Assembly: GCF_003790525.1 (NCBI RefSeq)
Contig: NZ_CP033635.1
DNA from: Escherichia coli
GTDB taxonomy: Bacteria > Pseudomonadota > Gammaproteobacteria > Enterobacterales > Enterobacteriaceae
Strand: one strand, 5' to 3'
DNA: 64,000 nt
Positions 3,010 to 49,335 of this stretch are shown piece by piece. The position numbers and the translations under genes were made by a program. Positions within the stretch are counted from its first letter, which is position 1, and every line of letters begins with the position of its first letter. The notes beneath the pieces are model-generated. The model did not search any database, was not told the origin of the DNA, and was given only the letters and a program-made list of their open reading frames with translations.

Positions 3010-3190
3010 AGTAATGGTGGTGGGGGAAGGATTACTAGCGCTGCGCGCTTCACCCTTCGGATCGTTGCCTGCGGCAACGCTTTCTCGCTGGCGCTCGAGT
3101 CGCACCTTGGTCGAAGCTTCTCATCCCTCCCCGCATGGGCAGAATATTTAATTGCGGATTCGTTTGAGAGTTCACGGACTTTTGAAAAGT
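3010..3190 (-). repeat. tyrT operon distal repeat region (rtT/tpr-like) with partial tRNA 3'-end copy
   Basis: partial copy of the tRNA-Tyr 3' end (atggtggtgggggaagg) at about 3013-3031, downstream of the two full tRNA-Tyr copies; rtT/tpr identity is from memory of K-12 organisation. Confidence 0.4.
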
Positions 3191-3192
3191 GA

Positions 3193-3277
<85 letters not shown>

Positions 3278-3311
3278 AGGGGTAATTCAAATTTTGAGGT
3301 AATGCTTGAGA

Positions 3312-3396
<85 letters not shown>

Positions 3397-8162: not shown

Positions 8163-8195
8163 AAACGGCGTTGAGCAATCGACGCCGTTTTTTTA
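8163..8195 (+). terminator. rho-independent terminator after galU
   Basis: hairpin aaacggcgt / acgccgttt followed by T run. Confidence 0.65.
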
Positions 8196-8230
8196 TAGCT
8201 TATTCTTATTAAATTGTCTTAAACCGGACA

Positions 8231-8264
8231 ATAAAAAATCCCGCCGATGGCGGGATTTTTAAGC
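8231..8264 (-). terminator. bidirectional hairpin terminator downstream of hns
   Basis: palindrome aatcccgcc-gatg-gcgggatt flanked by A and T runs on both sides. Confidence 0.65.
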
Positions 8265-8283
8265 AAGTGCAATCTACAAAAGA

Positions 8284-8697
8284 TTATTGCTTGATCAGGA
8301 AATCGTCGAGGGATTTACCTTGCTCATCCATTGCTTTTTTGATTACAGCTGGAGTACGGCCCTGGCCAGTCCAGGTTTTAGTTTCGCCGTTTTCGTCAAC
8401 GTAGCTATATTTTGCCGGACGCTGAGCACGTTTAGCTTTGGTGCCAGATTTAACGGCAGCAAGGCTATTCAGCAGTTCGTTCGGGTCAATACCGTCAGCG
8501 ATCAGCATTTCGCGATATTGCTGCAGTTTACGAGTGCGCTCTTCAACTTCAGCAGCAGCCGCGCTTTCTTCTTCGCGACGTTCGTTAACAACAACTTCTA
8601 ATTTTTCCAGCATTTCTTCCAGCGTTTCAAGTGTACATTCTCTTGCCTGCGCACGAAGAGTACGGATGTTGTTCAGAATTTTAAGTGCTTCGCTCAT
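8284..8697 (-). CDS. hns: nucleoid-associated protein H-NS
   Basis: 137 aa, [20 protein letters not shown]... with C-terminal [12 protein letters not shown]-binding motif. Confidence 0.95.
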
Positions 8698-24348: not shown

Positions 24349-25407
<1,059 letters not shown>

Positions 25408-37005: not shown

Positions 37006-37227
37006 TCACCATGCCTCCGCCTTTACAGGTAAACCATCACGACCGAGGAAGACTTTAATCATGCGGTCAGTAATGCATGTTTTTGTAGTGAAATCACGGA
37101 TATAAAGTTTTTGCTTTTCGATATTGTTTGCCGATGCAACATATGTCCGGCCTTCGTAAATAACGTAATCGCCGGGAGTGACGCACTGGCGTGGTATTTC
37201 ATCGGTTCCGAAGTGATGAGCAATCAT
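37006..37227 (-). CDS. hypothetical phage protein
   Basis: 73 aa ORF with strong RBS aaggag 7 nt upstream of ATG. Confidence 0.55.
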
Positions 37228-37272: not shown

Positions 37273-37818
37273 CTATTTAATACTCAGCAACTGCTCGACG
37301 GTCATATTTTTAATTGCGCCCCGGTTTATGAGAGTCCATCCCTGCTTTTCCAGATAAAAACGGAAAGTATCCAGAGTACAGACCAGTGCGCCATCAGGAA
37401 CGGTTTCGGTGAATTTGATGTAGCCGTGTTCGTCGAAGCGGATAACCAGGGTGTGGTCATCACCCGGGATTATTTTGTCAGCGGGTGTGGTGTTATTCCG
37501 GCGCAGTTCTTCCTCCATGCGGTCGAACTCGGCAATGTAGGCTTCCTTGAATGCAGCGGCTTTTTTGCCGGTGAAGCCCATCACCAGGAAAACGAAGCCG
37601 TTTTTGGTGATTTGGTAGGCATTGTAGGTATTGCCACGGTGCTCGAATTTAACCCGCGAAAAGTTGCTGGTTAAAAAGCGTTCAGAACATTCGAGGGCTT
37701 CTATTTTTTGAACAACATGGTGATGCTGCTTGCCGAAGAATTCTGCGATCGCAATAGACGTAGTGACAGCGCGACCATTTTCAATGGTTACGTCAGGGTG
37801 AGAAAGGGTAGTAGCCAT
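37273..37818 (-). CDS. Rha-family phage regulatory protein (antirepressor-like)
   Basis: start placed at MATTLSHPD (RBS gagga); N-terminal Rha motif GRAVTTSIAIAEFFGKQHHHVVQKIE; frame stays open upstream to 38115. Confidence 0.7.
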   Translation of the reverse strand: MATTLSHPDVTIENGRAVTTSIAIAEFFGKQHHHVVQKIEALECSERFLTSNFSRVKFEHRGNTYNAYQITKNGFVFLVMGFTGKKAAAFKEAYIAEFDRMEEELRRNNTTPADKIIPGDDHTLVIRFDEHGYIKFTETVPDGALVCTLDTFRFYLEKQGWTLINRGAIKNMTVEQLLSIK

Positions 37819-38298
37819 GATGGCATCCTCAAGTGTTAAGTTAATTAACTCACCACCGAGGCTTTCCACGACCATAAGGGTGGCGAGACGTACAGGGGTG
37901 GAAATACCGGTCACTCGAGAACCCGGCCAGCCTTGCAGCTGCCCTGCACGCCCCACCATTATCTGAATGTGGCTGTGCTTAACGCATAAAAAAACCGCTT
38001 CGGCGCGGTTATGCGCTCGAGTAACTTTCGGGTTTCCACGCCCGGCACCCGTTTTATGAGGTGCAGGTGCACTATAATTCCACCCGTACTGGTTTTCAAT
38101 AGCTACATTCAACATTTTCTCTTACCTTTCATCACCGAAGTGAACTTTGTTGATGCGGTGCCAGGTGCCTCCAGGTGACGTTAACCAGTTAACAATTAAC
38201 GCCGGATACAGAGAATCCACCCATAACACTGTTTTTGGTTTTAACTGTTCCGCGTGCGCTGAGCCGCATTCACCACATCACAAAATTCACTTTAAAAA

Positions 38299-38349
38299 GG
38301 GCGGCAGAGCAGTCACGGAGTAAAACTGATACCGCCACGTCACCAGAAA
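38299..38349 (-). ncRNA. dicF: DicF-like small RNA
   Basis: minus strand reads tttctggtgacgtggcggtatcagttttactccgtgactgctctgccgccc, near-identical to the remembered Qin DicF sequence (2-nt difference), followed by a T run. Confidence 0.6.
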
Positions 38350-38540
38350 ATTGATAACAGAGGGCGTTGCAGCGGGGTTGTCACTCAGGCGCATGGTCAA
38401 CCTGACAACCCGGTGTCCTCAAGGGGAAGGGAACCCCGCCATGCTTACCGCCGCGCGCTTTCGTGTTGTGTGCCTGCTTTTAACCACGTCAGGCGAGGTG
38501 GTATCCTCTGAGGGGTCTGTTACCCGAGAGGAAATTGGTT

Positions 38541-38741
38541 ATGAATACAATCAAGTTTTCTTGCCCAGAATGTGGTGGCGAAGTCTTCGACACATCCTTT
38601 AAGCCGCAGGGCTCTGACAGTTTCGCGGGAGCCATCTGCAAAAATTGTGGTCACCTTGTAACTGAAGATGAGTCCTCGCAATTCGATGAGGAAATCGTTG
38701 ACAATATCTTCGGTGTAATCACCGGAGCCTTTCTGAAGTAA
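38541..38741 (+). CDS. small zinc-ribbon protein
   Basis: 66 aa with two CxxC pairs (CPECGG ... CKNCGH) and acidic tail; RBS gagagg; an overlapping minus-strand ORF (38520..38876) is a competing call. Confidence 0.4.
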   Translation: MNTIKFSCPECGGEVFDTSFKPQGSDSFAGAICKNCGHLVTEDESSQFDEEIVDNIFGVITGAFLK

Positions 38742-39060
38742 AGGCACATACCGCTTAGTTACCGCTCTGATAATTCTTACCTGTCCGGCAATGGCGCTGA
38801 TGTCAATATAAAGCGCCATTGCTGCTTCTTTGCCGATCCCGGGATGCCTTCCATTCTGATGTTTGACTTCGCCCACTGAGAAATCCTCTGTTTCCCCTTA
38901 ACGCCGGGGTAGCGGAACAAAAACCTGCTGCATAGTTAAAGTTAAACCCTGCCGTCATGTTCATACGCCTCGGGCTGGCTACTTAACCCCTGACCACTGC
39001 CTGGTAACTCGAAGTATTGCCCTGCGTTCTGTGGGGCGGGGTGGGTTGGTATGAAAGAAA

Positions 39061-39100
39061 GGATACCCATGGGTATCCAAAAAGTAAATACCCATGGGTA
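39061..39100. promoter_or_regulatory. operator palindromes downstream of the repressor gene (OL-like)
   Basis: perfect 18-bp palindrome GGATACCCATGGGTATCC and a second TACCCATGGGTA 11 bp away. Confidence 0.6.
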
Positions 39101-39144
39101 ATTTTTTTTGATGTATCTTAACTGGTGACTGGTTGTTTGGTGAG

Positions 39145-39564
39145 TTATGATGCGTTTTGTGCTTTCTTTTTACGGATTTCTTCGTAGATCATATTGTAAT
39201 ACTGTTTTTTCTCTTCAAGAGTTTTTAATAAGTTATCCGCTTCACTTTCAGGCAGTTCGTCTAAGAGATCTAAAAAAATACGTTGTCGTGGCGTTAGAAC
39301 CCTTGTTTCATAATTGGAGGCTGTGTTCGTTGATGATGAAACGATACCATCCATCCATCCCCGGGGTAACCCAAAGGACTCTTCTATAATCTCCACCATA
39401 TCATCAGCGATCCGTTTTTTTCCTTTTTTCCCCTCTGGGTACAACATTCTTGATACATAAGAAGGCTCGCGACCGATCTTTCTGGCCACGTTAACCGCTT
39501 TACCATCGCATTTCTCATCACGAATTTTGATGAGTTGTTGTCGTCTAAATTCATATTTGTCCAT
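39145..39564 (-). CDS. prophage repressor (HTH, RacR/DicA-like position)
   Basis: start at MDKYEFRRQQL (listed ORF starts further upstream at a TTG inside the operator region); divergent from the cro-like gene. Confidence 0.7.
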   Translation of the reverse strand: MDKYEFRRQQLIKIRDEKCDGKAVNVARKIGREPSYVSRMLYPEGKKGKKRIADDMVEIIEESFGLPRGWMDGIVSSSTNTASNYETRVLTPRQRIFLDLLDELPESEADNLLKTLEEKKQYYNMIYEEIRKKKAQNAS

Positions 39565-39583
39565 AGGTAAATAATAGATGCGA

Positions 39584-39638
39584 TTACCGCAAGGTAAACA
39601 ACCCAAGGGTATTGACTTTTGTTTACCTGTGGGTATTC
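39584..39638. promoter_or_regulatory. divergent promoter/operator region between repressor and cro-like gene
   Basis: three related palindromic sites TTACCgcaaGGTAA, ACCCaaGGGT, TACCtgtgGGTA sharing half-sites with the sites at 39061-39100. Confidence 0.55.
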
Positions 39639-39665
39639 TTTTGCTGTGTTTACTAAGGAGTAGCT

Positions 39666-39947
39666 ATGGAAGAATTAAGAATATTTCTCAATTCTCTTTC
39701 GTCAGATGAACAGCGTATGTTTGCATGTGAGTGTGGTACTAGCATCGGTTATCTAAGAAAGGCATTGAGTAAAGGTCAAATGTTAGGGGCATCGTTATGT
39801 GTCCTTATTGAGCGAGCCAGTAATGGTGAAGTTACACGTCAGCAACTAAGGCCTTTTGATTGGATGAATATTTGGCCCGAGCTGGAAGATACCAAAACGT
39901 TAACACAACCACTTACTAGGAGCTTGATTCATGAAAATCAAGCATGA
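39666..39947 (+). CDS. Cro-like transcriptional regulator (YdaS family)
   Basis: 93 aa, RBS aaggag, divergent from repressor, similar to Rac YdaS. Confidence 0.7.
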   Translation: MEELRIFLNSLSSDEQRMFACECGTSIGYLRKALSKGQMLGASLCVLIERASNGEVTRQQLRPFDWMNIWPELEDTKTLTQPLTRSLIHENQA

Positions 39948-49181: not shown

Positions 49182-49257
49182 GTCCCTTTAGCTCAGTGGT
49201 GAGAGCGAGCGACTCATAATCGCCAGGTCGCTGGTTCAAATCCAGCAAGGGCCACCA
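49182..49257 (+). tRNA. tRNA with CAU anticodon (Ile2/Met-type, ileZ-like)
   Basis: cloverleaf folds by eye: D stem GCTC/GAGC, anticodon loop CTCATAA, T loop TTCAAAT, CCA encoded; one mismatch at pair 2-71. Confidence 0.8.
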
Positions 49258-49258
49258 A

Positions 49259-49335
49259 CCGCCACTAGCTCATCAGGAGAGAGCATCAGCCTTCTAAGCT
49301 GACTGTGCGGGGTTCGAGTCCCCGGTGGCGGTCCA
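49259..49335 (+). tRNA. tRNA-Arg (UCU)
   Basis: cloverleaf folds by eye: D stem GCTC/GAGC, anticodon stem TCAGC/GCTGA, loop CTTCTAA, T stem CGGGG/CCCCG, CCA encoded. Confidence 0.85.

Follow-up and report, generated by a model that had tools for sequence, protein, structure and literature searches.

A probable mosaic of two known RNA-based modules, DicF and IsrK–C4, upstream of rha in an Escherichia coli prophage

Introduction

Bacteriophage P1 controls its antirepressor through C4, an RNA that is excised from a precursor transcript and represses antirepressor synthesis. In the curated P1 record, the elements of this system follow one another in the order Oc4, promoters, a1 (7 nt), b1 (8 nt), c4 RNA, a2, and b2, with the start of icd 10 nt later. 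Here we describe a module of the same general type in a 64,000-nt stretch of Escherichia coli DNA (contig NZ_CP033635.1 of assembly GCF_003790525.1), which was analysed as a whole and is hereafter called the window. In this window, genes for the small RNAs (sRNAs) IsrK and C4 lie between the sRNA DicF and rha, a gene encoding a Rha-family regulator. All coordinates are positions in the window, and the features of the region are collected in Table 1.

A second described relative is the isrK-orf45-anrP-isrJ locus of the Salmonella prophage Gifsy-1, where the 77-nt IsrK has its own promoter and read-through transcription continues into orf45-anrP (Hershko-Shalev et al. 2016, PMC4825925). An RNA of ~80 nt, STnc1160, is processed from the read-through transcript, and IsrK supplied in trans raised anrP translation about 140-fold by pairing with the orf45 region (PMC4825925). 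orf45 is conserved in its nucleotides and not in its amino acids. In the published model, activation proceeds via an alternative fold together with orf45 translation, and the structure of the anrP ribosome-binding site (RBS) is seemingly unchanged (PMC4825925). The term "IsrK-C4 immunity system" was introduced by Barquist et al., who equated it with seqA/CI of P4 and with the systems of P1, P7, and N15 (PMC3632133).

IsrK and C4 occupy the open frame upstream of rha

The frame of the 181-amino-acid (aa) Rha protein stays open for 99 codons upstream of its probable start, as the initial annotation had pointed out, so that the internal ATG at 37818 is preceded by a 297-nt open leader. A covariance-model search placed two curated RNA genes, IsrK and C4, within this leader, and a third, DicF, further upstream (Table 1). 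Chance does not account for these matches, since each of the three scores above its curated gathering threshold and the same arrangement is found at dozens of independent loci. From the geometry of the PisrK promoter, transcription is predicted to start at G38064, where the IsrK model begins, and a stem-loop with a T run forms the terminator of IsrK. A hairpin-like element that had been singled out in the initial annotation (ccgcttcggcgcgg, plus strand) proved to be the stem-loop of this terminator. The start codon of the 280-aa open reading frame (ORF) that joins leader and rha lies upstream of PisrK, and the ORF therefore spans a transcription start, a terminator, and two RNA genes. In the annotation by the Prokaryotic Genome Annotation Pipeline (PGAP), all three RNAs are absent and the 280-aa ORF appears as a Rha protein.

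Two further statements of the initial annotation held in part. The leader had been called GC-rich, which is true locally for C4 (62%) and IsrK (56%) and not for the leader as a whole (52%, compared with 49% for the window). It had also been suggested to be a structured leader. The RNA is indeed structured; the segment is no anonymous leader of the DicF transcript, however, and contains two curated RNA genes with their own promoter and terminator.

Table 1 Features of the dicF–rha region and its surroundings
Feature	Position	Strand	Basis or remark
CI-like repressor gene, 139 aa	39145..39564	-	head of leftward region; phrog_5736 "transcriptional regulator", E 4.7e-70
Two perfect operator-like palindromes TACCCATGGGTA	39064-39075 and 39089-39100		pattern search
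Putative PL-like promoter overlapping the palindromes	-35 TTTACT 39088..39083, -10 TATCCT 39065..39060		8/12 consensus positions
DicF upstream flank, Qin-homologous	38349..38463	-	part of 311/328 alignment; counterpart of K-12 5'-processing region
DicF sRNA, RF00039, 51 nt	38299..38349	-	cmscan/Rfam 38348..38299, 65.1 bits vs gathering score 48, E 5e-12
U5 tail of DicF terminator	38294..38298	-	read from sequence
Remnant of dicF-dicB intergenic region and dicB 5' leader	38141..38293	-	Qin homology stops at 38141
280-aa ORF as called by PGAP	37273..38115	-	first 99 codons (38115..37819) overlie PisrK, IsrK, and C4
PisrK promoter, TTGAAA-17-TATAGT	38071..38099	-	best sigma-70 match in 37700-39700, 10/12 positions
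IsrK sRNA, RF01394, 77 nt	37988..38064	-	67.2 bits vs gathering score 50
a1, GUGGAAA	38039..38033	-	inside IsrK
b1, UUACUCGAG	38024..38016	-	inside IsrK
IsrK terminator stem-loop	38010..37993 + T run	-	terminator scan
C4-type antisense RNA, RF01695	37876..37963	-	73.8 bits vs gathering score 45; counterpart of Gifsy-1 STnc1160/"orf45"
In-frame ATG equivalent to orf45 start	37959..37957	-	inside C4
b' loop, GUUCUCGAGUGA	37922..37911	-	C4 hairpin-2 loop
a', AUUUCCAC	37905..37898	-	single-stranded stretch after hairpin 2
a2, GUGGAAA	37869..37863	-	rha translation-initiation region
GGUGGUGAG, possible alternative partner of C4 outer-stem 3' strand (CUCGCCACC)	37849..37857 with 37879-37887	-	downstream of a2
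b2, CACUUGAGGA	37835..37826	-	includes Shine-Dalgarno GAGGA 37830..37826
rha, Rha-family regulator, probable antirepressor, 181 aa	37273..37818	-	from ATG 37818
kil, FtsZ inhibitor	37006..37227	-	directly downstream of rha; NF008465, 151 bits vs cut-off 92; phrog_294

A scan of viral contigs with the 181-aa Rha as query yielded 80 loci, and in 77 of these isrK and C4 lay at a fixed distance upstream of the Rha ATG, 24-25 nt apart. The same spacing, again with scores above the gathering thresholds, was found in eight more distant phages (Salmonella 118970_sal3, Stx2a_1447, phiP27, cdtI, Stx2_131990, Stx1_14040, Yersinia vB_YpM_39, and GER2). The upstream DNA of the distant phages is unrelated, yet good promoters (TTGATT-17-TACACT, TTGACA-17-TATATT) are located equally far from the 5' end of IsrK, and in the close relative L048, TTGACG-17-TATATT is substituted at the PisrK site. 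This conserved promoter geometry gives strong comparative support for a primary transcript that would begin at IsrK +1.

The folds of both RNAs are maintained among relatives. In a MAFFT alignment of 46 related phage and prophage sequences (40 distinct), 98.4% of the cells in the IsrK and C4 helices were paired and 12 pairs had changed on both sides. None of 500 shuffles reached these values, and slid controls were only 37-47% paired.

The leader also evolves like non-coding DNA. Among gapless relatives, the synonymous share of single-base codon changes was 37% in the leader (21% and 26% in the two off-frames) and 87% in the first 100 conserved codons of rha. Variable sites were distributed over the three codon positions as 32/34/33 in the leader and 14/4/57 in rha.

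The surroundings of the module vary among phages. In phages of the Shiga toxin (Stx) type (Stx2a_1447, cdtI, phiP27), isrK-C4-rha is part of the early-right operon, with cII on one side and the replication genes on the other. GER2 carries an Rfam sRNA-Xcc1 match (75.7 bits, positions 1535-1618) downstream of isrK-C4, just before the antitermination gene.

The a and b segments covary with the translation-initiation region of rha

The window shows the composition of a C4 system, namely a C4 fold, a' and b' segments complementary to a2 and b2 at the RBS, and a second copy of the targets, a1 and b1, upstream. Each b' variant among the relatives is matched by variants at b1 in IsrK and at b2 immediately upstream of rha, and each a' variant is matched by variants at a1 and a2. 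The segments were taken by anchors and compared by cognate and non-cognate duplex energies; column-based pair counts on the alignment were not used because a 3-nt indel shifts the register of a2 in half of the rows. For the 18 b' types, mean duplex energies were -14.4 kcal/mol (cognate) and -7.5 kcal/mol (non-cognate) with b2, and -13.0 and -5.5 kcal/mol with b1. For the nine a' types, the corresponding values were -9.5 and -5.5 kcal/mol with a2, and -10.4 and -4.9 kcal/mol with a1. In each of the four pairings, none of 20000 permutations reached the cognate mean, and the cognate target came out best in almost all rows. Types of a and b combine variously; for example, loci L076 and L037 are alike in a' and different in b'.

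In the window itself, b' and b2 form 11 consecutive pairs (-15.0 kcal/mol; reached by 6 of 1000 shuffles) that cover the GAGGA Shine-Dalgarno sequence. Across the relatives, b2 abuts or covers the Shine-Dalgarno sequence or, in vB_YpM_39, the AUG. The covariation of a2 and b2 suggests that the RBS block known from P1 would apply here too.

We propose that the module may operate as a switch of the P1-immI or Gifsy-1-isrK type over translation of a Rha-family, antirepressor-type gene. A constitutive-looking promoter would start transcripts at 38064, and most of these would end at the IsrK terminator, giving the 77-nt IsrK with a1 and b1. Read-through transcripts would carry C4, from which a C4 RNA may be processed and whose exposed a' and b' could pair with a2 and b2. 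As b2 contains the Shine-Dalgarno sequence, pairing of b' with b2 would block translation of rha. IsrK would then present decoy copies of the target sites, and free IsrK may titrate a' and b' and so turn rha translation on. Activation of this kind has been measured for IsrK and anrP in Salmonella.

The regulated protein matches TIGR02681 over residues 8-107 of the 181-aa form (88.7 bits, cut-off 45.95) and Pfam Phage_pRha (PF09669, E 9.4e-26), and is similar to phrog_373 and phrog_63, families labelled "anti-repressor". From this PHROG similarity and by analogy with AnrP, Rha is probably an antirepressor.

A further pairing may contribute to the switch. The segment GGUGGUGAG, conserved in all 46 aligned sequences, has its complement in the 3' strand of the outer stem of C4, and the pair changes jointly in phiP27 and Stx1_14040 (GGUGGUGGA with UCCGCCACC or UCUGCCACC), a weak indication from a single lineage. 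The helix between GGUGGUGAG and CUCGCCACC could be an alternative one that frees the orf45-type AUG.

The module follows a Qin-type dicF cassette

DicF is an Hfq-dependent sRNA, and xylR and pykA are targets of its 5' end. The 3' end of DicF pairs with ftsZ mRNA, and in K-12 the 5' end is cut by RNase E (PMC5069750), which frees the sRNA from a polycistronic transcript under repressor control. The initial annotation had recognized DicF in the window from the sequence, on the minus strand, with a 2-nt difference and a final T run, and all of these features proved to be present at the coordinates given. The sole difference from the K-12 Qin dicF within the RNA is a 2-nt deletion in the linker, GACGUUUGGCGG to GACGU--GGCGG. 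The Rho-independent terminator is present as a GGCGG...CCGCC stem with U5; it was not returned by a simple terminator scan because its stem is interrupted. The ftsZ-pairing 3' half is the same as in K-12 and complementary to the RBS region of ftsZ, and the predicted duplex with ftsZ positions -60 to +30 has an energy of -34.7 kcal/mol here and -38.5 kcal/mol for K-12. The position of DicF relative to the control region had likewise been read correctly: the repressor gene and both copies of TACCCATGGGTA lie upstream of DicF, in the same orientation.

A BLAST comparison with K-12 Qin aligned the window from 38463 to 38141 (323 bp) with 311/328 identities (95%). The homology ends 18 nt short of the position of the dicB ATG, which implies that the IsrK-C4-rha module replaces dicB, and in the 99.9%-identical genome L001 PGAP annotates a partial DicB pseudogene that maps to about 38229..38146. 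The initial annotation had offered a structured leader or a DicB replacement rather than coding DNA. This agrees with the end of the Qin homology before the dicB ATG and with the lack of coding-type substitutions. Given the conserved stop-free frame discussed below, the leader may nevertheless be translated, even though its protein sequence is not conserved. At least 27 loci have DicF ~229 nt before the first base of IsrK, which makes this a recurrent, conserved arrangement. The cassette would represent a Qin-type dicF unit that has kept its processing flank and terminator and whose following dicB coding sequence has been replaced.

Two side observations concern these sRNAs and their target. 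The operon pairs DicF, antisense to ftsZ mRNA, with Kil, and the dicB coding sequence is gone, so two FtsZ-directed agents are still encoded. The curated P1 record lists a "dicF-like region" in the ban operon (record positions 68791-68892), which is not adjacent to the P1 C4 module.

Taken together, the region very probably represents the early-left operon of a lambdoid E. coli prophage, built as a mosaic of two known RNA-based modules. We are equally confident that the IsrK-C4 module, with its promoter and terminator, is an instance of the known antisense control of an antirepressor-type gene. Several observations weigh against this interpretation. No TACCCATGGGTA-like site with up to two mismatches was found near PisrK, which is a weak test as TACCCATGGGTA is itself a putative operator, and PisrK appears to have no visible tie to the prophage repressor, unlike the P1 promoter with Oc4. 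In the window, the a'-a2 duplex is weak (7 bp, -9.1 kcal/mol) and was reached by 101 of 1000 shuffles. The seemingly unchanged RBS structure of anrP in Gifsy-1 fits poorly with the idea that b' simply blocks the RBS. The 2-nt deletion in DicF is rare, occurring in 2 of the 29 copies examined (the window and a near-identical genome). Finally, over the 99 leader codons of 41 sequences, the ORF frame contained 1 stop and the other two frames 285 and 213, and such a conserved open frame is not predicted by a purely non-coding model.

A conserved open frame and its possible explanations

The stop-free leader frame is shared by six divergent lineages of the Rha type. From the orf45-type ATG at 37959, 47 codons run in frame with rha and contain no stop, so that the separate orf45 with an AUGA overlap is replaced here by a fused frame. 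Modules with another downstream gene have in-frame stops, namely vB_YpM_39 (the GUAA loop becomes UAA), GER2 (UGA in b'), and P1 (UAA in b'). We considered whether the open frame might be a mere by-product of the constraints on C4; this is not a full explanation, as these three modules tolerate in-frame stops inside C4.

The best surviving alternative extends the antisense model rather than replacing it. It holds that the leader is translated without yielding a functional peptide, the frame being kept open so that ribosomes run through IsrK and C4 into rha. Translation would start at the orf45-type ATG 37959, or at 38115 on transcripts that read through from PL, and could couple rha to C4 control or bypass it and produce N-terminally extended Rha isoforms. 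The frame is free of stops across 18 b and nine a variant types in the six lineages, and the leader amino acids lack conservation. The stops in vB_YpM_39, GER2, and P1, whose downstream genes differ, fall in the hairpin-1 loop or the b' loop, and the P4 ORF across the CI RNA ends 8 nt past the start of epsilon. Expression of anrP in Gifsy-1 depends on translation of orf45, and a fused 287-aa form has been reported from S. dysenteriae (PMC4825925). However, the independent lineages are few and kinship inflates the counts, neither ATG 38115 nor ATG 37959 is preceded by a good Shine-Dalgarno sequence, and three natural variants carry single-base frameshifting insertions in the leader while rha and its RBS are intact. 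In addition, ATG 38115 lies upstream of the PisrK start, so only RNAs extending past the DicF terminator would include it. We therefore regard both the run-through itself and its proposed starts and consequences as possible, with the balance tilted against them. In our reading the leader encodes no protein domain, and ribosome transit, as for orf45 of Gifsy-1 but fused in frame to rha, may be selected.

A distinctly less probable explanation concerns the first module, whose DicF copy might be a functionless, decaying remnant. The covariance score falls from 76.7 bits for the K-12 copy to the value in Table 1, the deletion variant is restricted, among the 29 copies examined, to the window and its near-identical genome, and the dicB coding sequence is absent. 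Against decay, the deletion sits in a single-stranded linker, whereas nothing is missing from the stem and loop, from the 3' half that is complementary to ftsZ, from the terminator, or from 115 nt of flanking sequence upstream, all of which show 95% identity to Qin. The order of DicF and, ~229 nt further on, isrK is also kept in at least 27 loci. Decay is thus an unlikely account of this copy.

The Ash domain as a possible translation of RNA genes

The last alternative takes the 280-aa ORF at face value: the protein would be real and consist of two domains, Ash at its N-terminus and Rha at its C-terminus, and the RNA matches would be incidental to its coding sequence. Annotation favours it in several ways. 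PGAP annotates the 280-aa form, phrog_995 aligns over its full length (E 1e-128), and Pfam Phage_ASH (PF10554) covers residues 14-106 (window 37798-38076, E 5.5e-13). The low number of stops in the ORF frame points in the same direction, as do the leader ORF of phiP27, which begins by an ATGA overlap on an upstream "Ant" gene, and the 383-aa ORF that spans the region in Stx2a_1447 and cdtI and is annotated as a single "antirepressor". However, the low synonymous share and the even spread over codon positions are those of non-coding DNA, and Ash shows no protein-level constraint and no codon periodicity. The DNA beneath the Ash match consists of the -10 box, IsrK, C4, and a2/b2, and the "domain" thus houses two RNA genes, whose helices and target sites covary at the RNA level, together with a strong promoter and a Rho-independent terminator. 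The three leader frameshifts leave rha and its RBS intact, the in-frame stops in P1, vB_YpM_39, and GER2 lie within C4, and the internal ATG is where the Rha family model begins. The Ash family also falls, in P4, on an ORF overlying the CI RNA, and P4 immunity is reportedly conferred by an RNA that is cut from a transcript that is not translated (PMC4825925). A two-domain protein is accordingly very improbable.

The P4 case shows how the profile behaves elsewhere. What PF10554 recognizes in P4 is the historic ORF of the "cI gene product (137 aa)" (8168-8584), which overlies the Rfam C4 match, that is, the CI RNA, and isrK lies upstream. One paper identifies P4 "Ash" with the epsilon antirepressor. 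We rejected this identification, since epsilon matches PF25738 and it is the old "cI" ORF that matches PF10554. In the literature, PF10554 has been employed as a profile for P4 epsilon (PMC8628076), and "Ash" has been discussed as a protein domain of unknown function in Rha proteins of Stx phages (PMC8951638).

PF10554 looks like a conceptual translation of RNA genes. A wider and rather doubtful generalization would be that Ash and the long "Rha/Ash" or "antirepressor" ORFs of E. coli, Shigella, and Salmonella phages and of P4 are translations of IsrK and C4 whose frame is held open for the transit of ribosomes. Just as tentatively, these ribosomes might enter from an orf45-type AUG or from upstream genes. 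If this were true, there would be a promoter-dependent route to antirepressor synthesis that escapes repression by C4, with extended Rha isoforms as a possible outcome. With at least 18 × 9 interchangeable a/b specificities, it would also provide a combinatorial, RNA-addressed insulation of the antirepressors of co-resident prophages.

Repressor, operators, and other neighbouring features

The repressor gene at the head of the leftward region resembles the C-terminus of DicA weakly (24 bits, under the cut-off of 101), and its counterpart in L001 is labelled a hypothetical protein by PGAP. We infer a PL-like promoter that overlaps the TACCCATGGGTA palindromes; its hexamers are absent from the output of the promoter scan. 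Operator-like sites are present on both sides of the repressor gene, as two degenerate copies, AACCCAAGGGTA and TACCTGTGGGTA, lie in 39600-39635, facing a divergent cro-like gene (39666-39947).

Between the control region and DicF, ORFs overlap on opposite strands in 38520-38876, and probably just one of them is real. The minus-strand ORF (118 aa) is co-oriented with the operon, its last 99 residues match phrog_21318, and it comes after a 28-nt stretch in common with the leader of Qin ydfA. The plus-strand ORF (68 aa) has a CxxC motif and is annotated as an "ECs_2282 family zinc-binding protein" (PGAP, NCBIfam; 57 bits, cut-off 37).

tRNA pairs located upstream of late genes are common in lambdoid and Stx-type phages, and adjacent genes for tRNA-Met(CAT) and tRNA-Arg(TCT) lie within the prophage at 49182-49335 (+). 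Outside the early region of the prophage, the window contains a full-length match to the sRNA isrC (145 bits, 25210-25332, minus strand). Two tRNA-Tyr genes followed by an RtT element (118.8 bits, 3015-3396, minus strand) mark a chromosomal locus of the tyrT-tyrV type.

Significance

All elements of the region are already known: for DicF, IsrK, and C4 there are curated RNA families and published mechanisms, and the locus is an ordinary member of its class combined with an annotation artefact. The succession of DicF, ~229 nt of spacer, and isrK-C4-rha recurs in many E. coli prophages and represents no new kind of element. The practical value is for annotation, as RefSeq/PGAP miss three RNAs, and Pfam and PHROGs hold protein families built on the translation of a leader. 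Reading the region as RNA genes alters the view of the lysis-lysogeny circuitry in Stx and other lambdoid prophages, and matching a/b types would predict which prophages can cross-regulate each other. Of residual interest are the wide range of a/b specificities, a leader frame that is kept free of stops, and the artefact of the "Ash domain".

Comparison with known systems

The dicBF operon of K-12 Qin (dicA, ydfABC, dicF, dicB) is the closest relative of the first module. DicF and its flanks are 95% identical in the two, DicF is oriented alike and lies downstream of a repressor gene and operators, and a 28-nt stretch of the operon's 5' leader is held in common. The differences are that ydfABC is swapped for other DNA here, that the dicB coding sequence has given way to the IsrK-C4-rha module followed by kil, that the repressor is not DicA, and that DicF is 2 nt shorter.

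The immunity region of P4 (seqA, CI RNA, seqC) resembles the second module in the succession of Rfam isrK (60.8 bits) and C4 (74.9 bits) matches and in an ORF through the CI RNA that matches Pfam Ash, as the leader in the window does. However, its isrK-C4 spacing is 107 nt, compared with 24 nt here, and its downstream gene, epsilon, belongs to the family PF25738. Its CI RNA reportedly causes transcription to terminate prematurely and does not act through an RBS (PMC4825925).

The immI region of P1 and P7 (with the promoters P1c4/P2c4 and the genes icd and ant1/ant2) has a promoter, a 7-nt a1, a b1 of ~8 nt, C4, a2, and b2 in like order and spacing. The P1 C4 belongs to the same Rfam model (68.8 bits in P1, 73.8 here), b2 of P1 (UGUUAGUG) runs into a GAGG Shine-Dalgarno sequence, and the final output is an antirepressor-type gene. 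The a1/b1 leader of P1 is overlapped by the Rfam "c4-a1b1" model and by a sub-threshold isrK match (35 bits). P1 differs in having a C1 operator (Oc4) on the c4 promoter, whereas the promoter here bears no recognizable operator of the prophage repressor. In P1, b2 controls icd, which is translationally coupled to ant, and a stop codon in the b' loop interrupts the frame across c4; here, b2 stands directly before rha and the frame is open and continuous with it. The downstream proteins, Ant1/2 and Rha, belong to separate families.

Gifsy-1 shares the same two Rfam families in the same order, an IsrK of 77 nt preceded by a promoter of its own, and a terminator, which is leaky in Gifsy-1 and predicted in the window. 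In both loci, an orf45-type AUG lies about 106 nt from the transcription start in the 5' strand of C4, IsrK is complementary to the C4 region, and the downstream gene encodes a regulator of the anti-repressor type. The Gifsy-1 orf45 overlaps the start of anrP through an AUGA at its end, while here 47 codons are fused to rha and 52 more are open upstream, and the module comes after DicF in an early-left operon. The in-frame fusion corresponds to the "fused" form noted for S. dysenteriae (287 aa; PMC4825925), and Salmonella phages of the ST64B type also have the fused form. The published Gifsy-1 model contains no pairing of a C4 part with the RBS of anrP, whereas the covariation of a2 and b2 in the relatives of the window suggests such a pairing at the RBS of rha.

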